DNA from: an uncultured delta proteobacterium
GTDB taxonomy: Bacteria; Desulfobacterota; Desulfobacteria; Desulfobacterales; B30-G6
Reading direction: 5' to 3'
Assembly (NCBI GenBank): GCA_963823335.1
Contig: CAWGLD010000001.1
Span: forward strand, 480,001 to 544,000
Length of the DNA: 64,000 bases
Part shown: piece after piece, positions 20,535-62,882 of the stretch
Layout of the letters: each line of letters begins with the position of its first letter
How positions within the stretch are numbered: the stretch's first letter is position 1
Position numbers and translations under genes: made by a program
Notes under the pieces: generated by a model
Databases searched by the model: none
Told to the model about the DNA's origin: nothing
The model's input: the letters and a program-made list of their open reading frames with translations, nothing else

Positions 20535-20685
20535 GATGGTCTCATAATAAGTCCGAGTTAGACGGTTTTGTAAAAAGTTCAAATTCAAGGCGTGCAAATT
20601 TTGTAATCATGAGGCGTACTTTTCGTACGTTGAATGATTACGAAATGCAGCACAACGCAGAAGTTGGGCTTTTTACGAGACCGCC
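20535..20685. repeat. ERIC-like folded element / MITE, copy 1
   Basis: Imperfect terminal IRs; core CAAGGCG...GAGGCGTAC/GTACGTTGA...CAACGCAG. Confidence 0.75.
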
Positions 20686-21458
20686 AAAAATGACCTGTCA
20701 GACAAAATGGTCAGCAACTGTTCCGCTTTCTGGGATGTCGATCCTTCCAGAAAAACACCATCCCGCGATTTTCCGGGCAAGGTCACCTGCTGCACGCTCT
20801 GCATCGGGGCAGATTCATCCGCCACATCCACGTGCAGGGTCTTCAGCTTCAGTTTGTTGGCCCGCAGCAGGTTTGACAGTGACGGATAGCGCGGCTGGTT
20901 GATACCGGTCTGAATCGTCAAGAGGGCCGGTAACTGCAAAGCAACCGCCTCCCGGTACCCCCCTTCTATCTCCCGCTCCACGCGCAGGCCCTCACCGGCC
21001 GACATGATCTTCACCTGAACGACGGCTGTTGCACACGGCAGGGACAGGTACTCGGCCATGAGGGGCCCTACCTGACCCTGCATCAGGTCTTCCGACATGG
21101 CGCCGCAGAAAATCAGGTCAGCACCCCTGGCTTCAGGTAAGCCCGCCATCCATCCGGCCAGGATGGACGGGTCCACAAACCCATCTGTGGGAGTGATGAT
21201 ATGTGTCCCATGGTCGGCCCCCATGCCTATGGCCCGTCGAATGACCGCCTCTGATCGCTCCGTACCAACGGACAGAACATGAATGCCCGTCCCGGGAAAT
21301 TGTTCCTTGATCTGGACAGCCGCTTCCACAGCACATTCATCGAAGTGGTTCATCCTGAAGGCCGATGTACCATGAATGGTTACCCATCGGGTGTCTTTGT
21401 CGATGGCGACGACGGCTTCGGATTCTGGAACCTGTTTTACACAGACGAGTAATTTCAT
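20673..21458 (-). CDS. etfB: Electron transfer flavoprotein beta subunit
   Basis: VCVKQVP, DECAVEAA, AIGMGAD, NQPRYPS. Confidence 0.93.
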   Translation of the reverse strand: MKLLVCVKQVPESEAVVAIDKDTRWVTIHGTSAFRMNHFDECAVEAAVQIKEQFPGTGIHVLSVGTERSEAVIRRAIGMGADHGTHIITPTDGFVDPSILAGWMAGLPEARGADLIFCGAMSEDLMQGQVGPLMAEYLSLPCATAVVQVKIMSAGEGLRVEREIEGGYREAVALQLPALLTIQTGINQPRYPSLSNLLRANKLKLKTLHVDVADESAPMQSVQQVTLPGKSRDGVFLEGSTSQKAEQLLTILSDRSFLAVS

Positions 21459-21557
21459 ATAAAATCATTCCACGATTTTATAAAACGCGACGTTGTCGCT
21501 CCTATAATAAAAACTATGAGTTGCTATTGGCTGACAGGTGACACCTTATCCCAAAAT

Positions 21558-21703
21558 TAGAAGCTATCTGAAAAATAGGATTTTGGTTCAAGATCAAGGC
21601 GGGATTGCGTTTCAATCCGCAGGAATACTGACGTATTTTGAGGAATTGAAACACGATCCCAACACAGAGATTGGGCCAAAAGACATTTTTAAGATGGCTT
21701 CTA
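21558..21703. repeat. ERIC-like folded element / MITE, copy 2
   Basis: TIR tagaagctatctgaaaaat / atttttaagatggcttcta, TA ends; core CAAGGCG...CAACACAG. Confidence 0.8.
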
Positions 21704-22906
21704 GTAATTTTCCCTTTCGATAATGGTCGCCACCCCCTGACCGCCACCCACACACGCGTTGGCACAGCCATAACGCCCTCCTTTGGTCTCCAGGATACGC
21801 GCTAGAGTGCCTGTCAGACGAACACCGGTTGCTCCCAATGGATGGCCCAGGGCGGTACCGCCGCCCATGACATTGACCGTGTCAGGATCGAGACCCAGTT
21901 CCTTGATACAGTTCAAGGCCACGATACAGAAAGCCTCGTTGATTTCCCAGAAATCGATGTCCGACGCTTTCAAGCCGGCCTTTTCCAGCGCCTTCCTGGA
22001 AGCGGGAACCGGGCCATCTCCCATGATGGTGGGGTCCACACCGGCAAAACCGATGGAACGGATGGTTGCCAGGGGCTTGATGCCTTTCTTTCTGGCGGTC
22101 TCTTTGGACATCAGAATCATGGATGTGGCCGCAGCATTGAGGGGCGAAGAAATACCGGCCGTTATCACACCGTCTTTTTTGAATGCCGGTCTCAATTGGG
22201 AGAGACCTTCCAGGGTCGTTTCCGCCCGAACAGCCTGATCCGTGTCGACGGTCATGACGGAACCATCGTCCTGTTCTGCCTCGATGGGCAGAATCTCATC
22301 TTTGAAAAATCCTTCTGCCTGGGCTTTTGCAGCCAGTTGGTGAGACCGTACCCCCCATTTGTCCATGTCTTCCTTGGTGAAGTCGCACTGGGCAAAAAGT
22401 TTCTCCGCCGTCAAGCCCATGTTCATGCTGGTCATCATGTCCCAGTGCTGGTAGGAGGGGTCCATAAACAGACCCATGTTGGGAACGATGGCGCCGCGAT
22501 CGATCAGGGGGCCGCCCATGGGTACGCGTGTCATGTGCTCCATGCCGCCCACCATGACGATATCCGCAAAATCCATGGCTATCTCCATGAAACCGATGTG
22601 AATGCCGGCCATGGCCGAACCGCACTGCTGATCCACGAATTTTGCAGCGATGGTTTCCGGCAGGTTGGCCAGGAAAAGGGGAAAGCGGCCACCAAAGGTA
22701 AACTGTTCTGAAACACCCGTGGCGCAGCCCACGATAAAATCATCGATCTCTTTTGGGTCAATCCCGGTTTTTTTAATGACCTCAGGCAGAAGTTTTCCCA
22801 GCAACTCATCCGAGCGCATTTTGCAGAACCAGTCCCGTGCAGGATCGTTGGGACGGGATCGGGTTTGTGCGGTTCTCAAGTATCCTGCAATGACGACTTC
22901 TCTCAT
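21701..22906 (-). CDS. Thiolase (3-ketoacyl-CoA thiolase)
   Basis: QQCGS, NEAF, GHPLG, CVGGGQG. Confidence 0.95.
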   Translation of the reverse strand: MREVVIAGYLRTAQTRSRPNDPARDWFCKMRSDELLGKLLPEVIKKTGIDPKEIDDFIVGCATGVSEQFTFGGRFPLFLANLPETIAAKFVDQQCGSAMAGIHIGFMEIAMDFADIVMVGGMEHMTRVPMGGPLIDRGAIVPNMGLFMDPSYQHWDMMTSMNMGLTAEKLFAQCDFTKEDMDKWGVRSHQLAAKAQAEGFFKDEILPIEAEQDDGSVMTVDTDQAVRAETTLEGLSQLRPAFKKDGVITAGISSPLNAAATSMILMSKETARKKGIKPLATIRSIGFAGVDPTIMGDGPVPASRKALEKAGLKASDIDFWEINEAFCIVALNCIKELGLDPDTVNVMGGGTALGHPLGATGVRLTGTLARILETKGGRYGCANACVGGGQGVATIIERENY

Positions 22907-23002
22907 GATGGTACCTCCTATTCATCCTTTAAATTCGTTGATAGCTATTGTAGACGTTCAGTACGTTAAACAACTTACATAACGATAAACACAAAACACC
23001 TC

Positions 23003-25126
23003 TTAATAAAACGTCTTTTCCTTCTCCACCATCTCCTGGATCAGGGCCGCCGGCTTGAAATGAATGCCGTACTGAGCCTCCAGTTCAACGAGCTTCTTGA
23101 GGACCCTGGAAAGACCCCACGTGTCTGCATAGCGGAGTATGCCGCCCCGGAAGGGCGGGAACCCCGTTCCGTAAATCATGGCCAGGTCCATATCCTGAGG
23201 TCTGTCACAAATCCCCTCCTGGATCATGTATGCGGCCTCGTTGATGGCGTTTGCCAGCATCAGGTCCAGGATCTCCTGTTCCGCAAGCTGCTTGGCGACG
23301 ACGCCGTTGTCCGCAAGATAGGTCTGCACGACAGCTACGATCTTTTGATTCGGAACGGGTGTGGCACCACTGTAATCCATGTAACCGGCCCCGGTTTTGC
23401 GGCCATAGCACCCGGTCTTGTAAATCAGTTCCGTCAGGGGGTGAACCTTGTAACGTTCTCCCAGTCTTTTCTCGAAGGTTTTGTTGACGTGGTAATTGAT
23501 GTCGATGCCCGTGAGGTCGGAAAGCGCCGCCGGTCCCATGGGCATGCCGAAGTTGAGCATGGCCTGTTCCACGGCGGAACCATCGACACCGTCGGCTGTG
23601 AGATAGACGGCGCCACCCATCAAGCCACCCAACTGCCGGGAAACATAAAACCCAGGGCCGTCATTGACCACGATAGGTATTTTCTTGATCTGCCTCCCAA
23701 AGGCCACACTCGTGGCAAGGGTCTGGTCAGATGTCTGCTCGGCGCAGATGATCTCCAGAAGCATCATGCGATGGGCCGGGTTGAAAAAATGAAGTCCGAT
23801 CATTCTACCGGGATCGGAAAGTGCCGAAGCCATTTCCGTTATGGGCAGAGCGGAGGTATTGGTTGCAAACACGGTATAGGCAGGACAGATCCCCTCTAAC
23901 TGTTTCCATATATCCTGTTTGATCTCCATGTCTTCCACCACGGCTTCGATGACAAGGTCCACCCCCTTTAGATCCGCGAGGTCGGTGGTGGTCTTGAACT
24001 GTTTCTCCAGCATGTTTTCAAGATCTTCCTGTTTCATCTTGCGCTTCTTGATGGGAAAGGCAAATGTCTGGCGGACAGAAGCAACCCCTTTTTCAAGGGC
24101 TGTCTCGTTGATATCCCAGAGAATGGTTTCACATCCGTTTTTCAGCAGGAGGTTGACGATGCCGGAACCCATGACGCCCCCTCCCAGCATGGCCACCTTC
24201 TTGATGTTGGCCGGCGCGGTCCCTTCGATGCGCTCGAGTCTCCCGGCGGCGCGGGTATTCAAAAATATTCCGATAAGGTTTTCAGCCACGTCCGACACGG
24301 CACAGTCGGCAAACAGCTCCACCTCCCTTTCAAGGTCCTTATCCATGTCATAGCTCAGCCCCTCAGCGATGGCCAGCACCGCTTTCATGGGTGCCAGGTA
24401 ACCTTTGGACTGCGCCGCCACCATGGCCTTTGTAAACTCCATCATGGATTTTTTCTCTGCCGCACTCGGAATCCAGTGGTGCTGATTACGGGTCATCCGC
24501 GCCTTGATATTGAGCTGACCGCTGGCAAACCGCTGGGCGGTCTGCACAGCCTTTTCGATCAGTTTCCGGGCCTCCACCACAGTATCCACCAGCCCTCTCT
24601 GAAGGGCGACTTCGGCTTTGATAGGCTTTCCCAGAGTAATCATCTCCAGGGCATACCGCAGCCCGATCAGGCGGGGCAGACGCTGGGTACCACCTGCACC
24701 CGGAATCAGCCCGATCTGCACCTCCGGCTGACCCAGATTGACACCCCTGGCGGCTACACGGTAGTGACAGGCCATAGCAATTTCCAGACCGCCGCCAAGA
24801 CAGTTGCCGTTGATGGCCGCCACGATAGGCTTGGGGCCTGTTTCCAGGCTGCTGACGAAGCGGGTAAATTCGAGGGCCCGCCCCAGAAAAAGGTCGCGAT
24901 CCTTGATCCCCTGAATCTGGGTGATGTCCGCACCGGCAATAAAGTTTCCGCCGGTGCCGGTGATAACCAGGGCCTTGATATGGTCATCCTCGTAGGCCGC
25001 CTTCAGGGCCCGGGCAAGATCCTCCACAAAATGTTTCGAAAGCTGATTCACGGGCGGGTTGTTCATATTGAACACGGCCACACCCTCTTTCACTTCCACC
25101 TGGATGGTATTAAATTCGGTTTTCAT
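23003..25126 (-). CDS. Multifunctional enoyl-CoA hydratase / 3-hydroxyacyl-CoA dehydrogenase (FadB/FadJ-like)
   Basis: GGGLE, PEVQIG, GGGVMG, TNTSAL, HFFNPA. Confidence 0.95.
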
Positions 25127-25142: not shown

Positions 25143-25315
25143 TAGCCTTCGGCCGTCATTGATGGTCATTAGCCCCGCGGGCGAAATATGTTGTCATTTC
25201 GCCTTCGGCTGTCATTAGCCCTGCGGGCAAAAGATATTGTCATTTCGCCTTCGGCTGTCATTAGCCCTGCGGGCGACATTAGCGCTGCGCGCGACATTTA
25301 TTGTTGCTGATAGCT
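25143..25315. repeat. Mini-hairpin array 1
   Basis: gccttcggc / gccctgcgggc / gcgctgcgcgc units joined by gtcatt or gacatt. Confidence 0.85.
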
Positions 25316-25486
25316 CCTGGCTGAGATTAAAACTTAAAACCTAAAATTTAACACGGTATTGTTTCCCCCTCAAACCTCGGTTAGGCTTTTAGGGGTTTAG
25401 ACTGTAGGCTGTTAGGTGCATTTTGCTCTCAGCTGTCAGCCACCCTCCAACCCTTGTATCCCCCACGAACCCTTGAACCCTCTTTT

Positions 25487-27304
25487 TTACACCCCCCCAA
25501 ACCCCGCATCTTCGATCTCAACGGCCGATCCATCAAAATCCTTTATCGAGACCATTTTACCGTGGGTCACTGGAAGGACCGTATTGATAAAAAACTTGGC
25601 TGACTGGATCTGGCCTTCGTAGAAGCTGACATCCTTTTTCTTGGCACCTTCCTGAAGTTTTTCAGAGGCAACAACGGCGCGCCATAGCAGCATCCACCCC
25701 ATGGTGACGTCCCCCATGACTTCCAGAAACGGAAATGCGTGGGCAAAGGCTTTTTTAAACTCGGGGGTCATGGCTTTCTGACCCAGGTGGAGGGCGGATT
25801 CTCCCAAGGCGTTCATGGCCGTTTCCAGCTTTTCGGCCAGGGGCACCAGGGTTTCTTGTTTCCTGGCCTGCGCGATGGTCTTTTGAATCTTTTCCAGAAA
25901 TTCCATGAAAACCTTTCCCTTTTTCATCCCCAGCTTTCTGGCCAGCAAGTCCATGGCCTGTATGCCATCCGTGCCCTCGTATATGGACGCTATTTTACAG
26001 TCTCTGGCAATCTGTTCAACCGGATACTCCCGGGTGTATCCATAACCGCCATACACCTGGATTGCCTCGATGCACACATCATATCCTCTCTGGGCACAGT
26101 AGGCTTTTACCACTGGTGTCAAAAGATCCGTCATGCCCTGATAGTGTTCCTTTTCTTCCTCATTCTCCGTGTTGGCCAGCTTGTCAAAACAGCGGACCGT
26201 ATAGTAGGCAAAACTGCGCATGCCATCCACATGGGCCTTCATCCAGAGGAGCATGCGTCTCACGTCAGGATGATTGATGATGGCTACCGGGGGCGCATCC
26301 CGTTCGGCGAATTTTTCCAGATCCCGGCCCTGCAGCCGTTCACGGGCATAGTTCACGGCATACAGATAGGCCGTGGTTGCATGGATAAAGGCCTGAAAAC
26401 CGACACCCAGACGGGCCTCGTTCATCATGTGGAACATGATGCGCATGCCATGGTTTTCCTCTCCCAGCAACAGTCCCCGGCAGTTGCCCTTACTCCCCAG
26501 AGACATGCTGCAGGTGGCGGAGGCGTGGATACCCATCTTCTCTTCGATACCGGTGCAGGTCACATCGTTGGGCTCACCCAGGCTGCCGTCCTCATTGACC
26601 CATATTTTTGGCACAATAAAGATGGAAATCCCTTTGGTTCCTGCAGGAGCGCCCTCTATGCGGGCAAGTACCGGGTGAATGATATTTTCCTGGAGATCGT
26701 GTTCACCGTTGGTGATAAATATTTTATCCCCCTTGATCGTGTAGGTGCCATCATCATTCTTCACAGCCGATGTGGTCAAGGCCCCGACATCCGACCCGGC
26801 GTTGGATTCCGTCAGGAGCATGGTTCCTCCCCATACACCGGTATAGAGCTTCTTGAGAAACATGGACTTCTGCAATTCAGTGCCAAAGAGCTCGACCATC
26901 TTGCCGGTGCCATGACCCATACGTGCATAGTTGACCAGCGGATAGTTGCCCCCCACAATGTATTCTGCCACAGCCATGCCGATACTGCTCGGCAATCCCT
27001 GGCCGCCAAGCTCCGGGTCTTCGTTCAACGCGGTCCATTCCCCCTCGATGAGAAGTTTGTGGGGTCTGTGAAAAGACTCGGGGACCTTTACCTGGCCCTT
27101 TTCAAAGCGCACTCCAGTCTGGTCCCCTTCTGCATATGTGGGCAAAAGCTCTTTGATTGCAAAGGTTCGCGCCTCTGAAATAATCATGTCAAAGACTTTC
27201 TTGTTGAGACCTTCGAATCTTTCATAAGCCAACAAGTCCTCAATCTTCATCTGTTCGTAAAGCACAAAATCCATGTCCCGACGATCTGCAATTACCTGTG
27301 CCAT
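25487..27304 (-). CDS. Long acyl-CoA dehydrogenase (~600 aa type)
   Basis: LTESNAGSD, KIFITNG, GGYGY, IYEGT. Confidence 0.95.
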   Translation of the reverse strand: MAQVIADRRDMDFVLYEQMKIEDLLAYERFEGLNKKVFDMIISEARTFAIKELLPTYAEGDQTGVRFEKGQVKVPESFHRPHKLLIEGEWTALNEDPELGGQGLPSSIGMAVAEYIVGGNYPLVNYARMGHGTGKMVELFGTELQKSMFLKKLYTGVWGGTMLLTESNAGSDVGALTTSAVKNDDGTYTIKGDKIFITNGEHDLQENIIHPVLARIEGAPAGTKGISIFIVPKIWVNEDGSLGEPNDVTCTGIEEKMGIHASATCSMSLGSKGNCRGLLLGEENHGMRIMFHMMNEARLGVGFQAFIHATTAYLYAVNYARERLQGRDLEKFAERDAPPVAIINHPDVRRMLLWMKAHVDGMRSFAYYTVRCFDKLANTENEEEKEHYQGMTDLLTPVVKAYCAQRGYDVCIEAIQVYGGYGYTREYPVEQIARDCKIASIYEGTDGIQAMDLLARKLGMKKGKVFMEFLEKIQKTIAQARKQETLVPLAEKLETAMNALGESALHLGQKAMTPEFKKAFAHAFPFLEVMGDVTMGWMLLWRAVVASEKLQEGAKKKDVSFYEGQIQSAKFFINTVLPVTHGKMVSIKDFDGSAVEIEDAGFGGV

Positions 27305-27400: not shown

Positions 27401-27570
27401 GTCATTTATGGTCACTAGCCCTTTGGGCGACATTAGCGCTGCGCGCGTCATTTGTTCTACCGAACGTCAGTTGCCCTGCGGACGACATTAGCGCTGCGCG
27501 CGTCATTCATTGTTGCTGATAGTTGTTTGCTCCTGGCCGAACCTAAAACTTAAAACCTAACACCTAACCC
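27401..27570. repeat. Mini-hairpin array 2 plus heptamer run
   Basis: Same units and ttgttgctgatag tail as array 1; (cctaaaa/cttaaaa)n. Confidence 0.8.
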
Positions 27571-29135: not shown

Positions 29136-29207
29136 ATCCGTGATTCTCCTATCGTTCTACCCACAATCATAACGAGAGTAACAAATAACAGAGTCTGCGT
29201 TGCCCAT

Positions 29208-29305
29208 GTCATTAGCCCTTCGGGCGTGATTTGTCCTTCGGACGACATTAGCGCTGCGCGCGTCATTTATTGTTGTTGATAGCTGTTCGCTGAACCTAAA
29301 ACCTA
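29208..29305. repeat. Mini-hairpin array 3
   Basis: gcccttcgggc, gtccttcggac, gcgctgcgcgc plus tail. Confidence 0.8.
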
Positions 29306-30341: not shown

Positions 30342-30589
30342 ACTCAACTTTCGGTTTTCACCATCGATAGAGCGAAATGGGTGATCCAATGGCGATTTGC
30401 GGTGTTTGAGGCGTTTAGGGATCCTTACATCAGCGCATGACAATGAAAATCCAATATGAAAACCCGGTCAGTTGAAAGCTATGCCTGTTTAACCATATGG
30501 CCGGCGCTGGTGTTAGGAACCCTTACGGCGAGTTCGCAAAGCGCCAGGGGATTATTCATTTCGTGTTCGCTGAACCCCGAAAGTTGGGT
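30342..30589. mobile_element. ~250 bp MITE-like element, copy 1
   Basis: TIR caactttcgg/ccgaaagttg; closely similar copy at 63423..63674. Confidence 0.8.
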
Positions 30590-35008: not shown

Positions 35009-37090
35009 CTAACGCGACGGCCGGGCAAGGCGGTACTGGGAAATTCTTCTGTAAAGTGTTCTGCGGCCGATACCCAGAAGGCGGGCTGACTTGGCGACAT
35101 TCCAGTCGGTCTGCTTCAGCATTGCCTGGATGTCACCACGATCCTTTCCAGGCGTTTTCCTGGCTGAAACTTTTGCGGACACCGGCAAGTCTCGAATATC
35201 GGTCGGGATATGCTGCAGGTGAATGGTGTTGCCATGACAGAGCACAAAAGCATGTTCGATGGTGTGCTCCAGCTCCCTGATATTGCCGGGCCAGTGATAG
35301 CCCATAAAAACACCCAGAACCTCATCCCCGAGCTTTTCGATATGCTTGCCAAAGTCCTGGTTAAACTTCTGGATAAAGTGATCCACCAGCAACGGTATAT
35401 CTTCCAGGCGGTCACGTAAGGGAGGAAGTCGGATTTCAACCACCTTGAGCCGGTAATAGAGATCTTCCCGGAATTCACCCTGCAGGACTTTCTGCTTCAA
35501 GTTCTTGTTCGTACTGGCCACGATGCGGACATCGGCCCTCATGGTGACGGAATCCCCCACCCGTTCAAATTCTTTTTCCTGCAGCACCCTGAGTAGTTTG
35601 AGCTGAATGCTGGCTGAAATATCACCGATTTCATCCAAATGGATAGTGCCCCCGTCAGCTGTCTCAAATCGACCCCGGGCATCTTTGACCGCCCCGGTGA
35701 AGGCTCCTTTTACATGCCCGAAAAGCTCGCTTTCGAGCAGGTTTTCAGCCAGAGCCGAGCAATTCACCGTCACAAAGGGCTTGAACGCCCGGTTGCCAAT
35801 ATTGTGAAGAGCCTTGGCCGCCAGCTCTTTGCCGGTCCCGCTGTCCCCCGTAATCAAAACCGTTGTCTCCAGGTCGGCGAGATCCTCCATCAGTTTGTAA
35901 ATCTCCCGCATGGGTCTGCTTTTGCCGATGATTTTCTGAAACCGGCTCCGCTCTGCAAGTTCTCTTTCCAGCTCGTTCAATCTCGTAATATCCCTGATGA
36001 CAAGGACGGCACCCATGAATTTGCCGTTCTTGTCCATAAGGGGGGAACAGGAAAGGTCCGATTTCTGGGACGGCCGCTGGGGATTACCACACTCCACCTG
36101 GTAGCCTTTGATGCTCGATTTCCGTTTCAGGGTCTCCAGCAGCACCTCGTGGCAGGCATTGTCACACCGACTGGAAACATCCGTAAATACTTTGCCGATA
36201 ATTTTTTTCGTTTCCAAGCCGCAGATGGCTTGCGCCGCCTGGTTGGCCTCGATCACCCTGAGATCTGTGTCCACGGTGATAATGGCATCTTTCACGCTTC
36301 GAAAAATGGCCCGGAGCCGATTGCGGTGCTCCATGGCATCGGCCTTGGCTCGCTTCCGGTCCGTGATGTCTCGAACAATACTGCGAAATCCTGCGGGCTC
36401 GCCCTTTGAATCTTTTTTTAATGATATGGAATACTCGAGTATTTTTCGAAGACCGCCCCTGGTGAATGTCTCAAATATGAACGACTTGCTGGGAATGCCG
36501 GTCAGATAGACCCGGTTAAAAGCCTGGTAGCAGGCATTGGCCGTCTCTTCGTCGGCGGTCTCGCGATAATTTCTACCCATGAGCCATTCCCGGGAAACAC
36601 CGAAAATTCTACAAACAGCATCATTGCAGAAAATGGTGTTGCCGGACAGATCGTTTTCTACGTAACCATCCTCGATATCATTGAGGGCACTCCGATAGTT
36701 TTCTTCTGTTTCACTCAGGGCGGCTTCCCTGTTCTTGAGTGCCGTAATATCGATCAGACACCCGATGTAATTTGAGCCCGTCTGCCCCGACCCCCCGGGA
36801 GGATTCCCGCTGACCCACACAAACGATCCATCCTTTTTCATCAGTCTGAAAACAATTGGCCCCCTGTCTCCAGCGGCAGGGGTGGCTTCCATTGCAGCGT
36901 TGTCAAGCAACAATTTGTCATCCGGATGAACGATGTCCAGAATGTTTATGCCTGTGAGCTCCGAAAAATTGCCGTAACCCAGCATCTGCAGCAGCGCCTT
37001 GTTGACATAACAGACGCTTTCACCATCCAGGGCATACACCCCCGCGGTCAAATTTTCCAGCACACTCTGATCGTACTTGCCCATGTGCAT
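35009..37090 (-). CDS. sigma54-dependent activator with three PAS domains and Fis HTH
   Basis: [39 protein letters not shown]. Confidence 0.95.
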
Positions 37091-42750: not shown

Positions 42751-44337
42751 ATGCTGCGCGTATTTCAAAACGACCTGTATCTCCCGGGAGAGTTCATCAC
42801 CACCCTGGAACTGGTCCCGGGCAAAGACTCCTCGGGTCGATCCGTGGACACCGTCATGGGTATTGCCCGGGATTCATTTGCCGATGGCAGGCTTTCAGCC
42901 GTATCCATCACCGACAACCCCGGTGGCAATCCCTCCCTGAGCCCCGACGTTCTCGGACACGACATTTTCAAGGTCGGCATGGATGTCATCGTTCACTTTA
43001 CCTGCCGGGATATGAACCGGGTTGGAATGGAAAGCAGAGCGCTGCAACTTTCCATGATGGGCATGAAGAATCTGCTGGCCCTTACCGGAGATTACACCGG
43101 CAAGGGATTCGGCGGGCAGGGTGCGCCTGTCTTCGATCTTGATGCCGTTAATCTCCTGATGATGCTCGATCAACTCAGCCATCGCTTTCACGAGGCAGGA
43201 GATCCGGATGGTTTTTTTACGGGATGTGCCGTATCCCCGTTCAAGTACACCGAGGCGGAATGCTTTGCGCAATATGCCAAACTCTGCCGGAAAATTTCGG
43301 CCGGTGCGCGCTTTATCATTACCCAGCTCGGATATGATGCAAGAAAGTTTGCAGAACTGATGACGGTGTTAAAGCAGCTCGAAGTGACCCTGCCCGTATT
43401 CGGATCCATCTATCTTCTGACACCCCGATCGGCCAGGATCATGAATCAAGGCCTGGTGCCCGGTGCCGTCGTCACCGACAAACTTCTGGAAAGGGTAGTG
43501 GGCGAATGGCAGGATCCGAAAACCGGGCGCGCCAGGGCCATCGAACGGGCGGCCAAACTGGGTGCCATTCTCAAAGGCCTGGGCTATCAGGGGATGCACC
43601 TGGGTGGGGTTCACAAAACCTACGATGTGGTGGGCGATATCATCAGCCGTATGAAAGCCATCCAGGATCAATGGCGGACTTTTCTGCCGGAATTCGATCA
43701 TTCGCCCCCGGGTGGTTTTTTTATGTTTGCGGATAAATCATCCGGCAATCCGTCATCCAATGGATTTGAACATCGGCCGGCAACTCTCCCGCTGATGGAG
43801 AAAATTCAATATAGGCTGATGAAGTCCATGCACGACCGATTCTTCAACTTCGATTCAAAGCATGCCCGGACCATGGAAAAAGTCTGCCGATGGATCGTAG
43901 ACACCCCTACAGCTGAAAAAATGCTGGAATTTTTCGAAACTTCAGCCAAAAAGCTCCTGTTGAACTGCCAGCAGTGCGGTGACTGCGGCATCCAGCACCT
44001 GGCCTTTTTGTGCCCTGAATCCCAGTGTCCCAAACATACCCGCAACGGTGCCTGCGGCGGCAGTCGCGACGGCATGTGCGAAGTGCATCCGGACCGAAAC
44101 TGTGTCTGGGTGAGAACGTACCGCCGCATGGTTTTCAGCGGCTCCTGTCATGACCTGCTTTCAGGATGTGTGCCCCCCAGAATGTGGGAACTCAACCAGA
44201 CATCCTCCTGGTTGAATTTCCATCTCAAGCAGGATCACCAGAGCGTGTCCACCGGTCTTGGAAAACATTGCCGGATCGAGGCATGCCAGATGTCATTTTG
44301 TGAATATTACGGTAAAGCTATAAATGATAGGCTGTAG
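42751..44337 (+). CDS. metF: Methylenetetrahydrofolate reductase with fused C-terminal MetV-like Cys-rich domain
   Basis: HFTCRDMNR, ALTGD, ITQLGYD; CQQCGDC...CPK..RNGACGG...CEV...CVW. Confidence 0.85.
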   Translation: MLRVFQNDLYLPGEFITTLELVPGKDSSGRSVDTVMGIARDSFADGRLSAVSITDNPGGNPSLSPDVLGHDIFKVGMDVIVHFTCRDMNRVGMESRALQLSMMGMKNLLALTGDYTGKGFGGQGAPVFDLDAVNLLMMLDQLSHRFHEAGDPDGFFTGCAVSPFKYTEAECFAQYAKLCRKISAGARFIITQLGYDARKFAELMTVLKQLEVTLPVFGSIYLLTPRSARIMNQGLVPGAVVTDKLLERVVGEWQDPKTGRARAIERAAKLGAILKGLGYQGMHLGGVHKTYDVVGDIISRMKAIQDQWRTFLPEFDHSPPGGFFMFADKSSGNPSSNGFEHRPATLPLMEKIQYRLMKSMHDRFFNFDSKHARTMEKVCRWIVDTPTAEKMLEFFETSAKKLLLNCQQCGDCGIQHLAFLCPESQCPKHTRNGACGGSRDGMCEVHPDRNCVWVRTYRRMVFSGSCHDLLSGCVPPRMWELNQTSSWLNFHLKQDHQSVSTGLGKHCRIEACQMSFCEYYGKAINDRL

Positions 44338-44547
44338 GGGGTTAGGCTATAGACTGTTAGGTACCAGGCGCCCTCCGCCGTCAGCCACCCTCGAACCCTA
44401 CAAACTTGGTTGCTTTGTTCATTGTGTTCTTCGGGTTTATTGTGTTGCCTAAGGCCGTCGGTATAGGCCTTCAACTCGTTTCCGTTTCATCAACCCAATG
44501 AACCCAAGAAACGCAACAAACCCTATTTTCCTCAAACCCTTGAACCC

Positions 44548-47500
44548 TTATTCCTCCCCCTCCTTCACTGCCGTTTCCTTTTTGCCGTAAAGCAGAAAAT
44601 AGACGACCGGTATCAGCAGCAGGGTAAAGGCCGTGGAAACGATCATGCCGAAGATGATGGACCATGCCAGCCCGCTGAAAATGGGATCCAGGGTAATGGG
44701 CCAGGCACCCAGGGTCGTGGTGCCGGCTGTCAGGAATATGGGTCGGAAACGAACGGCACCGGACTCCACAATGGCATCCACCAGGGCGCTTCCCCGCCTG
44801 ACCTGGACCCGGATAAAGTCGATCAGGATGATGGCATTCCGAACCACGATACCGCTCAGGGCGATCATACCGATCATGGCTGTAGCGGTAAAGAAGACCG
44901 GATTTGCAAAACCGCCCACAGGCTGGTTTACGATGATATTGAGAAGTGCAAACCCCGGCATGATCCCGATCATGGTCAATGGAATCGAAAGCATGATCAC
45001 CACCGGTATCAGGTAGGATGCGGTTTCATAGACCAGCAGCACATAAATGCCCACCAGAGCGGCTGAAAAAGCCAGACCCAGATCACGGAAAACATCCAGG
45101 GTGATCTTCCATTCGCCCTCTCCGCCCCAATCCAATCGTATACCGGACGGCAGCGGGTTTTCCTTGAAGTGTTTCTGGAGTTCCAGCACGGCATAGGCAG
45201 GGCCCCTGCCGGCCATCTCAGCCGTTACATAAACGACACGTTCCTGGTTCTTGTGGTAAATCGATTTGTCCTGAAGTGTTTCTTCGAAGCGACCCAGCTC
45301 TCCCAGTTGAACCCTGTTCCCGCTACGACCCATCACGGCAATGGTCTTTAGACGCGCGATGTCCGATCTGGCCTTCCTGGAAAGACGCAGTACAATGGGC
45401 AGTTCATTCTGTTCCGTCTCCAGATGCACGATCCCGGCCGGCATGCCATCCAGGGCGATCTTGAGCGTCTTGACGATATCCGCGGTGGAAATACCGTTGA
45501 GACCTGCTTTTTCGCGATCCACCCGAAAGAAATACTTGCGCAGGTTCGCTTCCACCATATCGTCGACGTCCACGACCCCGTCTGTCTGAGTCATGCGCTC
45601 CTTGACCTTCCAGGCAGCCTGGATCAGGTCATCATAGGTGTGATGCGGTTGCCCGTATACCTCGGCGACGAGGGTGGAAAGAACCGGCGGACCGGGTGGT
45701 GCCTCCACCAGCTTGATACTCACACCGGTCGCCTGGGCAATCGCCTGCATGTCTTTGCGAATTCTCAGGACCATGGCATGGCTCGACATCTCGCGCTCAT
45801 CCCGGTGCAGCAGGTTGACCCGGATATCGGCTACGTTGGCACCCTCCCTGAGGTAGTAATGACGCACCAGCCCGTTGAAATCCATGGGCGAGGCCGCGCC
45901 GACCGTGGTGGTATAGTTGGTGACTTCCGGCATGGCCATGAGGACTTTTTCCACCCTGCGGACCACGGCCTCGGTCGCTTCCAGGGTGGTTCCCTCCGGC
46001 GGATCGATGAGCACCTGAAATTCGTTCTTGTTGTCAAAAGGCAACATCTTCAGGGGCACATGTCCTGTGAGTGCCAGCGCTATGGATATGAAAAACAGGA
46101 TGGCGATCACCAAAAGGAGCAGAAGACTCTTGGCCTTTGAGTTGACAAAAGGAAGAATGATCCGGCGGTATATTCGGTAATTGGTGGTCTTGGTGAGATC
46201 GTAGGGTTCCTGGTCGGCAGTCTCCTGTTTCAACAGCTTGGCCGAAACCCAGGGAGTGATGGCAAAGGAAACGACCATGGACATGAGCATGGCCAGAGGC
46301 ACATTCAAGGCCATGGGGCGCATATAGGGTCCCATCATGCCGGTAATGAAAAACAGGGGCAGAAAGGAGACAATAATGGCCAGGGTCGCCAGGATTACCG
46401 GCGGCATGACCTCGTTGATGGCGATGGAAATGGCTTCCAGTTTCTTGCGACCCCCCATGGTCAGGTGCCGGTAGATATTTTCCACGCTCACGATGGGATC
46501 GTCCACCACGAGTCCCAGGGCCAGAATGAGGGCAAAAAGTGTCACCCGGTTGATGGTGTAACCGAACAGGTAATTGAAAATGAGAACCAGGGAATAGGTG
46601 ATGGGTACGGCAATGGCCACAATGGTTCCGGTACGCCACCCCATGTAAAAGGTAATCAGTGCAATCACGGTAATAATTGCCTCCCCAAGGCTTTTGACCA
46701 GGCTGTTGACCTTGTCGTTGGCGGTCTCTCCGTAATTTCGTGTGATCTGGTAGCTTACGTTGTGGGGTAGCACGTTCTGCTTCAGGTCCTGCATGCTTTT
46801 TTCGATTTGCCTGGCAACCCAGACCGCATTGCTCCCTTTTTTCTTGGCTATCGCGATGGTAACCGCCGGGAATGTGTCGTTGCCCGACACCTTCTGGCCA
46901 TCCTTTGCGTGGGCTGCTCCGAAACCGATACGGCTGTAGGAGAGAACCTCCTCGGGACCATCCTGCACCTTTGCCACATCCCGCAGATAGACAGGTCTGC
47001 CCTGGTACAGGGTAACAAGCAGGTTCTCGATCTCCTGGATACTCTTGACAAAGGGGCCTGCTTCGACCCGAATCACCTGATTGGCTTTTTCATATTCGCC
47101 GCTCTGCATCTGGGTGTTGGACACCTGAACAGCTCCGGCAACTTCCATGGCGGAAAGACCGTATGCCGCCAGACGTTCCGGGTCCAGATACACATAGGCC
47201 ACACGTTTTCTGCCACCGTGCACACTGATTCTGGCACTGTCGGGAATGTGCTGCAGTTTACCGACGACCTCTTCGGCAACACGGTACAGGTTGTGATCGT
47301 CCAGCACATCGCTGTAGAGGGTCACATTGACGATGGGAACGTCGTCGATTTCAATGGGCTTGATGATCCATCCGGCGATCCCGGGTGTCACCTGATCCAT
47401 GTTCTGGCTGATCTTGTTGTAGAGTTTGATGAGACTCTCTTCACGATTCTGCCCCACATGGAATCGAACCGTGACAACAGCCATCTCCGGACGCGACATG

Positions 47501-48828: not shown

Positions 48829-48855
48829 GTTCTCCCCCTGTTGACGCCTTCGAAT

Positions 48856-49030
48856 GACATTTGCCTTTCAGGCGTCATTTGTTCTATCGAACGACATTTG
48901 CGCTACGCGCGACATTTCGCCTTCGGCTGTCATTAGCCCTTCGGGCGAGATTAGCGCTGCGCGCGAGATTTATTGTTGCTCATAGCTGATAGCTGGAAGC
49001 TACGATAAATGACACGAAGCGAATGACATT
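48856..49030. repeat. Mini-hairpin array 4
   Basis: Six hairpin units joined by gacatt/gtcatt/gagatt, plus tail. Confidence 0.85.
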
Positions 49031-49072
49031 TCTTCCCCTCCAACCCTTGTATCCCCCTCGAACCCTTGTACC

Positions 49073-50428
49073 CTACTTCATATAGCGCTCCACCCCCAGC
49101 CCCCGGGCCCTGTCATAATTTGAGAGCGCTGTCAGATAATCGTAATATGCAGCGACACTCCTGGTTTTCTGGGCCGTCAATCCTACTTGAGCGGTCAGCA
49201 GCACCGTAATCTCCGCCGCGCCTTGCTTGTACATCTCAGAGGTAATGCGCAGTGCTTCGGCGGCACTCTCGATACTCTTTTCACTCACCTCCAGCCGCTC
49301 CCAGGCATCCATGGCTTTGAGATATGCCTGGTGGAGATCCAACCGAAGTTCGTTGCGGGCTTTAAGGGTCTCATTTTGGGCTGTCTGCCACTCGGCCCTG
49401 GCGACCCTTGCCTTATTCTGTCGCTGATAACCATCAAAAAATTCCCACTCCGCCATGACACCCATGAGATAACTGTTTTCAAATTCCGCAAAATCACCAC
49501 TGTCAACATCATAGGAGCCGAAAGCACTCATGGTGGGACGATTTTCACGGGAAATTTTTTCGTAGGACTGTTCCTTGATGTTGGACATGCTATGGGTGGC
49601 TTTCAATTCTGGCCGATTCTCGAGAACACTGAAGTCGAGCGCATCAGGCTTTTTCCGAATTGCTTCCCGGGCCGGAACCGAGATCCCACTGGAGAAAATC
49701 AAATCCGAGCCAATGGCCGTGTTCAAGGACGCAATTGCGAGCCGGACCCCATTCTTGACCCGGATGGTGTCCTCTCGCGCCTGGGCCAGCTTTACCTCCA
49801 GATTCAGCACATCGGTCTTGACCGCAGATCCCGCGTTGAAACGCGCCGTCGCAACCCTGAAACTTTCCTCAAGGCTTTTCACCGACTCCTCCTGTACAGC
49901 CACAAAGGACTGGGCCTGCAACACACCGTAATACCCCCGGGTCACCTGGTGGATCAGTTCGTTTTGGACTGCCCGCAGACCCATTTCCCGCAATTGTTTG
50001 CTCTCTTTCGCCATCCGGACCTGGATTGTTCTGACACCGCCATCATAAATCTGGTACTTCAAACCAAGGGAAAGCCGCACATTGTCGGTATGGTCTGGAT
50101 CATTCGGGTCAAATCCCGCTTGCGCCATATCAAGATCTTTCTGGTTGAGTGACATCATAAATGCCTGGGGAGGATTGTCGGTCACGGAATAGGCACCCGA
50201 AAGGTACAGGCGTGGGTAGTAAGCCGATTCCGCATGCTGGATCATGTATTTGGCTTCGTTTATACGGGTGATGCCCGCCTGAATCCCCGGGTTGTTCTCG
50301 AGAGCGGTTTTGATACATGTCTCAAGTGTCACCGCCTGACTCGATAGTGCCAGACCGAGAACCATCGCCAGGACCAATGCAATGCCCAGAAGACAGCGAC
50401 AAGATCGTCGAAGCATCCCTTCCTTCAT
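49073..50428 (-). CDS. TolC family outer membrane protein
   Basis: Signal peptide, ALENNP, two TolC repeats; start placed at ATG 50428. Confidence 0.9.
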   Translation of the reverse strand: MKEGMLRRSCRCLLGIALVLAMVLGLALSSQAVTLETCIKTALENNPGIQAGITRINEAKYMIQHAESAYYPRLYLSGAYSVTDNPPQAFMMSLNQKDLDMAQAGFDPNDPDHTDNVRLSLGLKYQIYDGGVRTIQVRMAKESKQLREMGLRAVQNELIHQVTRGYYGVLQAQSFVAVQEESVKSLEESFRVATARFNAGSAVKTDVLNLEVKLAQAREDTIRVKNGVRLAIASLNTAIGSDLIFSSGISVPAREAIRKKPDALDFSVLENRPELKATHSMSNIKEQSYEKISRENRPTMSAFGSYDVDSGDFAEFENSYLMGVMAEWEFFDGYQRQNKARVARAEWQTAQNETLKARNELRLDLHQAYLKAMDAWERLEVSEKSIESAAEALRITSEMYKQGAAEITVLLTAQVGLTAQKTRSVAAYYDYLTALSNYDRARGLGVERYMK

Positions 50429-50750: not shown

Positions 50751-50768
50751 TCATTATCACCTGCCTGA

Positions 50769-50907
50769 ATTGAACCCTAACAGCGAGCACGTGCCCCATG
50801 GGTTCTGTCTGCAGCAGAGCTTGCATGTCGCGGGGCTGGCGAGCGAATCTGAAATTAAAGAATTTCTTAGGGTCGAAGAATCCCGCAGATTGCTGTGAGT
50901 TTCTTCA
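50769..50907 (+). repeat. Degenerate copy of TTGAACC...TTCTTCA element
   Basis: Colinear with 59979..60124. Confidence 0.75.
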
Positions 50908-51117
50908 TGGTTACGAAAAAAAACAGTTGGTGACGTTACCAAACGCTTAGTGAACACCATAAAACCAAACAAGGTTTTTGTCAATTCCTGATTATCTTTT
51001 GAGAAGCACTTGACAACAGGAGAGACTTCTGAATAATTACCTTTCTCAAATTAAGGATCGAGCATCACGCCAATTTATGAACCGAAAAAGTCAGCGCATT
51101 CTCCGTAGGATCACGCC

Positions 51118-52569
51118 ATGATACTTCCCGTCGAGTGGAAAACAGGTCTCCAGTTACTGCCCAAAGATGACCTCATCAAAATTCACGAGGCCAGTCTGCA
51201 GATACTGGAACATACCGGTATGGCCATGCCCCTGGGGGAAAACCGCCTCAACGATCTTGCGGATTTTGGATTGCTGGTGGACCGTAAGACAAATAGGGTC
51301 CGTTTTCCGTCACACATCGTGGAAAGCGCCATCCAACACGCACCTGATTCGTATATCCTCCACGCCAGAAACCCGGAACACGACCTTGTTCTGGACGGGC
51401 ACCACGGATATCTCTGCCTGGACGGCACCGGTCTCAAGGTAAAGAATCTGGATTCCGGCCTGATTAACAAATCCACATACAAGGATCTGGCCGACGCTGC
51501 ACGGGTAGCCGATTTTCTGCCCCAGATTTCCTTTTTGTGGCCCTGCGTCAGCGCCCAGGACCGGCCTTCGGCAACCCAGGCTCTTCACGAGCTGCATGCC
51601 CTGATGCACAATTCCGGAAAGCACATCCAGGCCATGACCGCCGTAAGCCCCCTGACAGCCAAAGGCACGGTAGAAATGGCTGCCGCGGTCGTCGGTGGCA
51701 AAGCCTCCTTGAAAAAAAGACCGATCATCTCCAATTTCCAATCCACCATCAGTCCCTTGACCTGCAGTGCCAGGGGCATGGAGTCGGCCCTGATCTTTGC
51801 AGAGGCCGGTGTTCCCGTCGGCTTTGTGACCATGCAGATCGGTTGTGCCACCGCACCGGCCACCCTGGCCGGCAATATTGCCCTGGGAAACGCGGAAATC
51901 CTGGCCGGCATCACATTTCTGCAGCTTTTTTATCCTGGAACACCCTGCTTCTACGGATCGTATGCCACCATGATGGATCTGAAAACCGGTGGTATGACCG
52001 GTGGCAACCCCGAAGACTTTCTGTTACAGGCGGCTGCCATTCAACTGGCACGACATTACAGACTGCCCATCACCATCGGGACCTATGGGACGGGCGCCGT
52101 GAGCGACGATTGGCGAAGTGGTGTTGAAAATGCCATCTCCGGGGCCGTGAGCCTGTTTGCGAGAGGAGACATGCTCTGTGGGGCGGGTCTGTTGGATTGT
52201 GCCACGATTTTCTCTTTTGAACAACTGATCAAGGATTGCGAGATATACGACATCTTGAGAATCGTCAGCAGCGGTATATCCGTTACACCGGAAACCCTCG
52301 CCCTTGACGACATTCATGCCACGGGGCCTGAAAACCACTACATGATCAGCGATCACACCCTGAAGCACATGCATGAAATCTGGCAACCCACGGTCAAGGG
52401 ACGCCCCGCTGTCAACACACCCTCATACCCGGGTGCCTCTGAATCTGGCGCCACCGCTGCAGAAAAAGCCCGGGAAATTTTAAAGAACCACGTCCCCATT
52501 CCCCTGGACAATGCCGATCAGGTCCAGGAAATTCTCGACGCCTACGACCGCCTGGCAATGGAAACATAA
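51118..52569 (+). CDS. MttB-superfamily methyltransferase, non-pyrrolysine
   Basis: IHEASLQILE, ISPL, ATAPATLAG, GAGLL, LALDDI...GP; no in-frame TAG. Confidence 0.9.
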   Translation: MILPVEWKTGLQLLPKDDLIKIHEASLQILEHTGMAMPLGENRLNDLADFGLLVDRKTNRVRFPSHIVESAIQHAPDSYILHARNPEHDLVLDGHHGYLCLDGTGLKVKNLDSGLINKSTYKDLADAARVADFLPQISFLWPCVSAQDRPSATQALHELHALMHNSGKHIQAMTAVSPLTAKGTVEMAAAVVGGKASLKKRPIISNFQSTISPLTCSARGMESALIFAEAGVPVGFVTMQIGCATAPATLAGNIALGNAEILAGITFLQLFYPGTPCFYGSYATMMDLKTGGMTGGNPEDFLLQAAAIQLARHYRLPITIGTYGTGAVSDDWRSGVENAISGAVSLFARGDMLCGAGLLDCATIFSFEQLIKDCEIYDILRIVSSGISVTPETLALDDIHATGPENHYMISDHTLKHMHEIWQPTVKGRPAVNTPSYPGASESGATAAEKAREILKNHVPIPLDNADQVQEILDAYDRLAMET

Positions 52570-55656: not shown

Positions 55657-55828
55657 CCCGTTTAAAGAATCACGTTTTGCATATTGCCGCGCCGGCCAAG
55701 ATAATTACCCGTACTTTAACTATAAGCTATCTCAAAAATGTCTTTTGGCCGAAATGTTTATAAAAAGGGGAACCCGGTTTCCCTCCATGCAAAAACTGAC
55801 TGGGGGAAACCGGAGATATCAAGAAATA

Positions 55829-58477: not shown

Positions 58478-58484
58478 GCCTCCT

Positions 58485-59915: not shown

Positions 59916-59978
59916 GTCTCATCCCTTTCCAAAAATTGAACCTCATCCAGCGCTGGGAAGAGCACTGAATGAATTTCA

Positions 59979-60124
59979 ATTGAACCGAAACAGCGAGCGC
60001 ATTCCCCGTAGGTTCTGCCGTCCGGCAGTGCTTCGCATGCTGCGGGGGTTAGCGAGCGAATCTAAATTAGACAGAATTCCTTACGGTCGAAGATTCCTCG
60101 TAGCTTGCTGCGAGGTTCTTCAAT
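59979..60124 (+). mobile_element. Non-autonomous element with IS200/IS605-like subterminal hairpins
   Basis: Ends ...cctcgtagcttgctgcgagg-ttcttcaa; several related copies in the window. Confidence 0.6.
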
Positions 60125-61230: not shown

Positions 61231-61316
61231 GAGTAAGCAGGACAGCTATAAGCATTGAGCCATAAGCTGTTAGCATGCTTATAGCTTAATGCTTACTGCT
61301 TAAAAAAGGCCAAACA

Positions 61317-62459
61317 TTGACCACCAAAACAATTGAAAAACAGATCCTCCCGGTCTCCAGCATGGGAAACCAACGCGCATTGACGATTATCCGTTACGGC
61401 AACGGCTCTGCCGGGAAGAAAGCCTATGTCCAGGCAGGGCTGCACGCCGACGAGGCTCCCGGGTATCTCGTCATGCACCACCTGATCAACCTGCTCGATG
61501 CGGAGGATAGCGCCGGAACCATCCCAGGGGAAATCCTGCTGGTTCCAGTGGCCAACCCCATCGGGACGGGCCAGTGGCGCGATGAAGTCCTGAGAGGTCG
61601 CTTCGATTATTTCGACAACACAAATTTTAATCGGAAGCACCTGGACATTACCGATAAAGTAGCCGAAAAAATCTCGAACACCCTGTCCGATTCACCGGAT
61701 CGAAACAAGGCCATTATCCGTCAGGCCATGGCCGACGTACTCCAGGGCTTATCACCCATCGATGAATCGGCCCGGCTCAAGCACCTGCTCCTGTCCCTTT
61801 CCTTTGATGCGGATATCGTTCTCGATCTCCATTGTGACTACCAGGCCGTTACCCATGTCTACATGGGCAGCCCTCTCTGGCCGGAGGCCTCGGACCTGTC
61901 CGCCCAGATCGGATCGGAGGCGACGCTTCTAGCCAAGGTCTCCGGCGACAACCCCTATGACGAGGCCTGCAGCAGGATCTGGTGGGAACTGGCTGAAAAA
62001 TTTTCCGCCTTCCCTATACCGTTGGCCTGCCTGGCCGCCACCGTCGAACTCAGAGGAATCTCAGACGTCTCACACGCACTTGCATCCCGTGATGCGCAAA
62101 ATATCTTTCACTTTTTACAGAGACGGGGCCTACTTTCCGGGCAGACCGCGGAACTGCCGCCCCTGCGAAACCCTGCAACACCCCTGCGGGGGGTAGCGCA
62201 TCTCAAAGCGACAGCGCCGGGTGTGGTGGTCTATTTCAAGAAACCCGGGGACAGGGTCAAAAAGGGAGATGTCGTTGCTGAAATCGTGAATCCCCTGGAA
62301 GAGGATCCGCACAGCCGGGTCACCCGCGCAAGAAGCGATATCGATGGTCTTCTCATCTCGGTCAATATCGACCGCTTTGCCAGACCTGGCCGCCTCCTGG
62401 CCAAAATTGCAGGAAAGGAGCCCTTGACGGACAAGGGGGAAAATCTGCTTACTTTGTAA
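61317..62459 (+). CDS. Succinylglutamate desuccinylase/aspartoacylase (M14) family
   Basis: LHADE, ANPIG, NFNR, DLHCD, TVELRG. Confidence 0.9.
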   Translation: MTTKTIEKQILPVSSMGNQRALTIIRYGNGSAGKKAYVQAGLHADEAPGYLVMHHLINLLDAEDSAGTIPGEILLVPVANPIGTGQWRDEVLRGRFDYFDNTNFNRKHLDITDKVAEKISNTLSDSPDRNKAIIRQAMADVLQGLSPIDESARLKHLLLSLSFDADIVLDLHCDYQAVTHVYMGSPLWPEASDLSAQIGSEATLLAKVSGDNPYDEACSRIWWELAEKFSAFPIPLACLAATVELRGISDVSHALASRDAQNIFHFLQRRGLLSGQTAELPPLRNPATPLRGVAHLKATAPGVVVYFKKPGDRVKKGDVVAEIVNPLEEDPHSRVTRARSDIDGLLISVNIDRFARPGRLLAKIAGKEPLTDKGENLLTL

Positions 62460-62573
62460 TAGTTAGGGTTCAAGGGGCCGAGGGGGATACAAGGGTTGGA
62501 GGGTGGCTGACAGCAGCATCCCAGCGTCCCAGCATTCAAGGAGTGAAGGTGTGAAGGGTTTGAGGGAAAGAGA

Positions 62574-62735
62574 TGTCATTTGCTTCGCGTCATTTGTGGT
62601 CATTTACTTCGTGTCATTAATCGCAGCTGTGGGCATTCAGCTATAGACAACAATAAATGACAGCCGAAGGCGAAATGACGCGCGTAGCGCAAATGTCGTC
62701 CGGCAGGACAAATGACGCACGAAGTGTAAATCACC
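62574..62735. repeat. Mini-hairpin array 5 (inverted orientation)
   Basis: aaatgac-gccgaaggc, gcgcgtagcgc, gtccggcaggac. Confidence 0.8.
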
Positions 62736-62757
62736 TAAGAACTGAATTAATTGGAAT

Positions 62758-62882
62758 TAGCCGGCGTATTTTGAAGTGAGGTTGCCGCATCCGCAAGGCG
62801 TCGGACCATGAAGCTGTAGTTTGCTACCGCGAATGGTCCGCAACACAGCGGATGCGGTGAGATCGCTTCAAAATACCGGTTA
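62758..62882. repeat. ERIC-like folded element, copy 3
   Basis: Long IR with TA ends; core CAAGGCG...CAACACAG. Confidence 0.8.

Follow-up and report, generated by a model that had tools for sequence, protein, structure and literature searches.

We describe three palindromic elements, E1, E2 and E3, in a 64,000-nucleotide (nt) stretch of DNA from an uncultured delta proteobacterium of the Desulfobacterales (assembly GCA_963823335.1, contig CAWGLD010000001.1, positions 480,001 to 544,000), referred to here, at its full length, as the window. The elements probably form a Desulfobacterales branch of the ERIC (the repetitive intergenic consensus of enterobacteria, also named IRU or RU-1) superfamily of small non-autonomous palindromes that insert at the 3' ends of genes, a reading to which we assign a probability of roughly three in four. 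ERIC repeats are used worldwide for strain typing. E1, E2 and E3 are insertions; relatives carry clean empty sites for E1 and E2. Models of these elements and of enterobacterial ERICs recognize each other. The data support an extension of the ERIC family to another bacterial phylum, with several sequence types that keep only the loop.

E1, E2 and E3 are the longest local inverted repeats of the window and share one predicted anatomy. Read inwards, it starts with an outer helix of some 20 bp, which is followed by an asymmetric loop, with CAAGGCG on its 5' side and CAACRCAG on its 3' side, by a short GCA/UGC helix of 3-4 bp, by a middle helix of 8 bp in E3 and 13-15 bp in E1 and E2, by a GA-type loop and, innermost, by an apical hairpin of 6-7 bp. 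The arm sequences are unrelated among the three elements, and the internal loop is common to all of them. A sequence-only reading of the window had placed both motifs in each element and had quoted stem sequences that differ yet pair; we find the motifs at the positions given, all on the + strand, and the quoted stems do pair in the predicted folds. Taken singly, CAAGGCG has 15 matches in the window against 9.9 expected and CAACRCAG eight against 3.9. As ordered pairs 38-66 nt apart the two motifs occur exactly three times, where about 0.02 pairs are expected on the + strand. The + strand folds at -60.6 kcal/mol in E1 (z = -8.2), -67.2 kcal/mol in E2 (z = -10.8) and -73.2 kcal/mol in E3 (z = -9.4), compared with -42.6, -51.6 and -61.7 kcal/mol for the respective - strands, and none of 200 shuffles of each element was as stable as its + strand.

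The link to ERIC was examined with two covariance models, R1, built from E1-type and E2-type copies only (alignment A4), and R2, built from four Escherichia coli K-12 ERIC copies only. The K-12 copies come from five 50-kb stretches, in which the ERIC2 primer sequence at ≤6 mismatches locates copies at metR-metE, ahpC-ahpF, aspS-nudB and rhlB-gpp, the four differing from the primer at 1 to 6 positions; at ≤3 mismatches the primer has no match in L063, where a degenerate copy is present at 6 mismatches, and no ERIC was found in L065. Run with filters off over the window and one related locus, L011 (84,777 nt together), R2 ranks E2 first at 41.9 bits (E = 9.6e-9), then E1 at 36.1, E3 at 24.4 and two L011 copies at 21.5 each; the next match after these five scores ≤15 bits. 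Likewise, R1 gives the metR-metE ERIC 38.6 bits and the ahpC-ahpF ERIC 29.6 bits, and, across the 250 kb of E. coli sequence, it reports only these two and the rhlB copy at E ≤10. These reciprocal tests support the earlier proposal of a structure-conserved element of the ERIC superfamily.

The likeness extends to individual bases. The E. coli consensus of Wilson and Sharp, as printed in Table 1a of PMC2759123, reads in reverse complement CAAGGCG-GCAAG ... GAGCTTAC ... GTAAGTGA ... GCAGC-CAACGCAG, so that the ERIC motifs which the sequence-only reading had given are correct on that strand. The motifs CAAGGCG(G)CAA ... GCAGC-CAACGCAG stand in equal order in both families. The distance between them is 60 nt in all four E. 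coli ERICs and in E1, 58 nt in E2 and 40 nt in E3. In bracket notation the folds predicted for the E. coli copies show the same pattern as that of E1, and both families share their size and long imperfect-palindrome fold (about 127 bp in ERIC), as well as GAG ... TGA around an apical (G/T)TAC-loop-GTA(C/A) hairpin. E2 is the most ERIC-like copy, with arm words common to ERIC at equal distances from the motifs. TA flanks E2, E3 and an L011 copy on both sides, as it does ERIC, and both families are found at or on stop codons and fold better on the CAAGGCG strand.

Relatives of the window comprise 62 loci (named L001 and so on) from one search of genome contigs with EtfB as query; the closest of them, with 77-88% EtfB identity, are titled uncultured delta proteobacterium or Desulfobacterales metagenome-assembled genomes, and the genome of the window itself is not among them. 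According to a 2024 review, ERIC hosts are Enterobacteriaceae and Vibrionaceae, and the host here therefore lies outside the usual range, as had been claimed. With filters off, R1 detects E3 on its + strand alone, at 34.3 bits (E = 5e-7). L011 holds a fourth type (15296-15394), which scores 37.2 bits against 18.4 on the other strand; it is TA-flanked, has 40 nt between its motifs and encloses the stop codon of a gene of the APH family. Further copies in L010 (8082-8197) and L008 (12635-12766, with 73 nt between the motifs) reach 33.1 and 30.8 bits. Within the window R1 with filters off finds no further copy, the other palindromes scoring ≤21.3 bits and on both strands. Default search filters overlook E3, the L011 copy and one E. 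coli ERIC; the absence of R1 matches under these filters in the 40 more distant loci (624,102 nt) is therefore a weak negative, and so is, for distant loci, the R2 search of all 62 loci, which under default filters returns three matches only, all E2 copies. A relaxed scan for motifs plus folding energy gave 47 matches, mostly noise in G+C-rich loci, and was used as no more than a lead to the L008 and L011 copies. No Rfam family covers the elements: the window has no match at the gathering score, and at E ≤1 positions 20450-21800 yield a chance CRISPR-DR5 match only (E = 0.4). Among plasmid sequences, blastn retrieved nothing for E1 or E2.

At least six sequence types occur among the close relatives, with unrelated arms and middle helices, and the earlier claim of divergent arms that still pair is borne out by covariation. 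Ten copies of five types were aligned with MAFFT (A3); for this alignment RNAalifold predicts 27 pairs, 22 of which show changes on both sides. The paired cells amount to 89.3%, compared with 62.7% in shuffles, and none of 500 shuffles reaches 89.3% or 22 of 27; the covariation score is 0.713 against 0.226 in shuffles, and only 36-50% of the cells pair when the register is slid. Whole-element MAFFT alignments (A1, A2 and A6) misplace E3 or the right arms and were excluded from these counts. When arms were anchored on the two motifs in 12 sequences, including the four E. coli ERICs, 218 of 264 cells pair, against 45% when left and right arms are taken from different elements. In comparisons between types, identity averages 32% over the 44 arm bases (range 9-59%) and 83% over the 15 motif bases (range 67-100%). 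Every helix has been rewritten through compensatory change, and conservation is confined to the bases of the loop and a small number besides. A trans-acting factor probably reads this fixed loop.

Empty sites in relatives, which the sequence-only reading had suggested looking for, were found for two of the elements. At the etfB/etfA junction of L001, L002, L005 and L011, E1 is absent and the genes overlap (ATGA); these sites hold a single octamer, TCATTTTT on the gene strand. In the window, L003 and L004, E1 is present and flanked by two copies of the octamer. The paired octamers around E1 are a classic target duplication, and E1 has split an ancestral ATGA overlap of etfB and etfA. On the 3' side of the thiolase gene, L001, L002 and L003 read ...TAC TAA and lack E2, and in the window, L004 and L005 E2 follows ...TAC TA; L011 carries an E2 that lacks one arm. 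Presence does not track relatedness, the nearest loci, L001 and L002, being without both E1 and E2. The window and L004 differ considerably in etfB, with 81% identity overall and 66% at third codon positions, and have zero mismatches at 20541-20689, beyond which identity drops to the background level over some 60-90 nt to each side. A near-identical E1-type copy occurs elsewhere in L002, with an APH-family gene on one side and a 3-hydroxyacyl-CoA dehydrogenase gene on the other. Patchy presence, an identical E1 and a second locus are marks of recently mobile or recently exchanged DNA.

The spacer between the thiolase gene and etfB also holds hairpins of other kinds. Two other palindromic elements lie there in L006 (about 9700-9910) and L007 (about 9760-9965); they lack the CAAGGCG/CAACRCAG loop and score 18.5-19.9 bits with R1. 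Low-complexity palindromes made of GCTTACAGCTTA / TAAGCTGTAAGC words occupy the same spacer in L001-L003, where other genomes hold E2, and recur at gene ends in the window (19519-19562, 39297-39360, 42660-42709, 61244-61309 and 63370-63435) and in relatives. The spacer looks like a hot spot at which hairpins insert.

How might such insertions be tolerated inside genes' ends? The stop codon of the upstream gene lies within the element or at its edge in all three window elements, as had been noted before, and in the L011 copy of the fourth type; the remaining three copies (L002, L010 and L008) lie 36 to about 170 nt downstream of a stop codon. In E. coli, the ahpC stop codon adjoins its own ERIC hairpin, and the rhlB and aspS copies are within about 8 nt of a stop codon. 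A terminal purine beside the duplicated TA restores a stop codon in either orientation; such insertions are therefore tolerated, and the orientation bias described below is left unexplained. We suggest that the mobilising enzyme may be encoded elsewhere. Once inserted, the elements would be transcribed together with the gene upstream and form a 3' or intercistronic hairpin, the base of which the terminating ribosome would open, and they might alter the processing or stability of the mRNA, as reported for Yersinia ERICs. We know of no mobilising enzyme for ERIC, and the passages of the reviews that deal with ERIC name none. The same passages describe ERIC as an element with terminal repeats and a target duplication and with TA at each end, and state for Yersinia that ERICs at 3' ends lower the upstream transcript via an exposed RNase E site, with orientation being crucial.

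The two strands of the elements are not equivalent. G-U pairs on the motif strand and on its complement number 7/1, 8/1, 7/3, 4/2, 6/3 and 5/4 in six Desulfobacterales copies and 4/0, 5/3, 5/3 and 1/1 in the E. coli ERICs, and the motif (CAAGGCG) strand has the lower energy in nine of ten copies. The orientation shared by the three window elements, which the sequence-only reading had pointed out, is confirmed, with the motif strand antisense to the mRNA, and extends to relatives: in seven of seven independent insertions (E1, E2, E3 and those in L002, L011, L010 and L008) the CAAGGCG strand is antisense to the nearest upstream gene, the L008 copy sitting between convergent genes. Contrary to a strict rule, the solo E2-type arm at 55719-55753 points the other way, and the E. 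coli ERICs are mixed (ahpC antisense, two sense, one between divergent genes). ERICs that overlap stop codons reportedly share one preferred orientation. The + strand of the window has negative GC skew throughout, which makes the motif strand the lagging-strand sequence, and weaker skews suggest a lagging-strand motif in every locus, including L010 with its flipped genes. Given that a transcription rule and a replication rule both fit all Desulfobacterales copies, the two orientations are inseparable here. The usual replication-linked C-to-T pressure on the leading strand would be expected to favour wobble pairs on the other strand; the G-U asymmetry therefore seems to reflect selection or inheritance from source copies.

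These strand effects bear on the strongest alternative, which is distinctly less probable than an ERIC branch spread by insertion. It holds that the elements work as a folded single strand, either single-stranded DNA or a transcript of the CAAGGCG strand, and that a structure-specific enzyme reads the asymmetric loop and not terminal repeats, by a logic like that of attC sites or IS200/IS605 hairpins. The wobble pairs and the lower energies on the CAAGGCG strand are consistent with it, as are a loop that is conserved while termini and helices vary, and a wobble strand for which mutation bias, partly by our own reasoning, would offer no explanation. Candidate + strand promoters upstream of E1 and E2 fit as well; they are hexamer pairs at 20519-20548 (just upstream of E1) and 21436-21465 (about 95 nt upstream of E2), which match the consensus only weakly (4 found, 1.2 expected) and could drive transcripts of the better-folding strand. 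Against it, ordinary cut-and-paste insertion is what the TA flanks and the 8-nt duplication suggest, neither an integrase nor a HUH (Y1) transposase is found among the 47 open reading frames (ORFs) scanned in the window, the elements lie inside core catabolic operons and form no cassette arrays, and the sample is small, with several copies related. A broader proposal, which we regard as tentative, is that ERIC-type elements are a structure-defined mobile class across phyla, with an asymmetric loop on one strand (CAAGGCG / CAACRCAG) as the only invariant part. The termini and the helices would be free, a conserved factor would move or process the elements as a folded single strand and not via terminal repeats, and the favoured strand would be the antisense or the lagging one.

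It is very improbable that E1, E2 and E3 are vertically inherited cis-regulatory RNA structures of their operons, that is, processing or stabilising hairpins and not mobile DNA. Their position at gene ends inside operons, strong covarying folds and the retention of the same sites in several relatives would suit such regulators, but they occur patchily and out of step with similarity in etfB, and L001 and L002, the nearest relatives, lack both E1 and E2. Moreover, two genomes whose etfB genes are 66% identical at third positions carry an E1 that is 100% identical, E1 is surrounded by a target duplication, and its type occupies a different locus in L002.

We consider it equally improbable that the likeness to ERIC is a product of chance or of convergence between long hairpins of unrelated origin. 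ERIC and E1, E2 and E3 have only about 25 positions in common, and generic hairpins reach about 21 bits with R1, with two of the four E. coli ERICs scoring no higher. Yet the matches are reciprocal, full-length and confined to one strand (41.9 and 36.1 bits against ≤15 with R2; 38.6 bits with R1), the order of the motifs is equal and the 60-nt spacing of E1 is identical to that of ERIC, E2 shares arm words with ERIC at equal motif distances, and both families sit at stop codons. Intrinsic terminators or attenuators are the least probable explanation of all: stable hairpins directly after stop codons would suit them, but no T-run follows the stems, a terminator scan finds none for the full hairpins and a single match inside E2 that is a 6-pair sub-stem, and E1 separates etfB from etfA, two genes that overlap in relatives and are necessarily co-expressed.

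Several observations weigh against a Desulfobacterales branch of ERIC that spreads by insertion. Judged by plain sequence, E1, E2 and E3 are not ERICs, and the ERIC1R and ERIC2 primer sequences have no match in the window at ≤6 mismatches. The other two E. coli ERICs score only 20.2 and 19.7 bits with R1, and a ribosomal terminator hairpin reaches 21.5. R1 and R2 were built from few sequences (effective numbers 1.16 and 1.37), and the E-values are rough. Termini are unrelated between types, the reverse of a normal family of MITEs (miniature transposable elements with inverted repeats) with conserved terminal repeats. E1 has an 8-nt duplication instead of the TA of ERIC, which corrects the sequence-only reading on this point. 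The empty sites of E2 match its left junction only. No transposase is present among the 47 window ORFs scanned. Finally, the better-folding strand is antisense to the mRNA, and a purely mRNA-level function fails to explain the upkeep of the fold.

The elements also differ from enterobacterial ERICs in several respects. They reside in a host of another phylum, lack the central 44-bp ERIC sequence and may have a shorter middle helix (40 nt between the motifs in E3 and the L011 copy) or a longer one (73 nt in L008). E1 has its 8-nt duplication and a doubled arm, and orientation is uniform here (seven of seven) but mixed in the four E. coli copies. A full-text literature search for 'ERIC-like' found no report on Desulfobacterales.

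Other small repeats resemble these elements in part. Correia/NEMIS of Neisseria and RUP of the pneumococcus are likewise small, palindromic and non-autonomous with terminal TA, and passages of the reviews describe both as TA-duplicating MITEs that are co-transcribed and can be processed by RNase. Their terminal repeats are conserved and match known insertion sequences, whereas here the termini vary and the internal loop is conserved, and there is no likeness in sequence. Integron attC sites have a conserved structure with free sequence, a few fixed bases and a strand-specific fold, and they follow the end of a gene. E1, E2 and E3 are likewise structure-conserved and strand-specific and lie after gene ends, but they lack R''/R' core sites, an integrase and a cassette array, and target duplications are present. 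REP/BIME and IS200/IS605 palindromes are, in the same way, intergenic hairpins recognised as structures. They differ in being about 35 nt long, with a GTAG-type tag and no target duplication, none of which is seen in E1, E2 or E3.

What would such a branch mean for ERIC itself? Relatives in which every helix has been rewritten show which of the bases of ERIC, about 25, are constrained, and that the constraint is on one strand. If a structure-defined class did extend across phyla, the Desulfobacterales copies would point to the functional core of ERIC. Recent entry into core catabolic operons of uncultured relatives of sulfate reducers provides a natural experiment, in which filled and empty alleles can be compared.

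The coordinates of the elements, their motifs and the neighbouring genes are collected in Table 1. The genes that flank E1 and E2 form a conserved beta-oxidation/electron transfer flavoprotein operon.

Table 1. Elements, motifs, neighbouring genes and stop codons in the window (position 1 is the first nucleotide of the window).
Feature	Position	Strand	Remark
E1	20537-20685	+	between etfB and etfA; main hairpin about 20563-20683 (about 121 nt)
E1, extra left-arm copy	20537-20557	+	second copy of its own left arm
E1, left 8-nt direct repeat AAAAATGA	20529-20536	+	target-site duplication
E1, right 8-nt direct repeat AAAAATGA	20686-20693	+	target-site duplication
E1, loop motif CAAGGCG	20586-20592	+	
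E1, loop motif CAACGCAG	20653-20660	+	60 nt after CAAGGCG
E2	21560-21701	+	142 nt; between thiolase gene and etfB; TA at 21558-59 and 21702-03
E2, loop motif CAAGGCG	21595-21601	+	
E2, loop motif CAACACAG	21660-21667	+	58 nt between motifs
E3	62760-62880	+	121 nt; downstream of ACT-domain gene; TA at 62758-59 and 62881-82
E3, loop motif CAAGGCG	62794-62800	+	
E3, loop motif CAACACAG	62841-62848	+	40 nt between motifs; middle helix shorter
Solo E2-type right-arm remnant	55719-55753	-	35 nt, 89% match, without core; orientation opposite to E1, E2 and E3
EtfA gene	19533-20525	-	
etfB	20673-21458	-	
Thiolase gene	21701-22906	-	
FadB-like protein gene	23003-25126	-	
ACT-domain protein gene	62880-63359	-	
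etfB stop codon TAA	20673-20675	-	inside E1 arm; last three codons and stop supplied by E1
Thiolase stop codon TAG	21701-21703	-	flanking TA plus first E2 base; empty sites read TAA
ACT-gene stop codon TAA	62880-62882	-	flanking TA plus first E3 base

The window holds further repeats, some of them close to the elements or to their sites in relatives. A direct repeat of 243 nt, 91% identical between its copies at 30344-30586 and 63427-63669, has no Rfam match. The first copy lies in the APH-hbd spacer, the spacer that holds the E1-type element in L002, the second lies just upstream of the ACT gene that has E3 downstream, and shorter inverted matches to the repeat occur at 1378-1423. Intergenic arrays of units of about 23 nt (GTCATTAGCCCTGCGGGCGACATT... 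type) follow genes at 25165-25336, 27420-27545, 29207-29305, 48847-49008 and 62638-62731, and one array of this type directly adjoins E3, inverted. A C-rich repeat (CCCTCCAACCCTTGTATCCCCC... type) is found in both orientations between genes, at 25432-25507, 39458-39533, 44335-44399, 44530-44563, 49036-49100 and 62455-62514. The ORF at 51118-52569 encodes an MttB-family methyltransferase and is uninterrupted over 483 aa, with no in-frame stop suggesting pyrrolysine. A repeat of 35-68 nt, up to 88% identical, lies upstream of genes at 11623-11692, 50768-50807, 51078-51112 and 59978-60047; it contains a GG-N10-GC word resembling a sigma-54 promoter, and a sigma-54 activator is encoded at 35009-37090.

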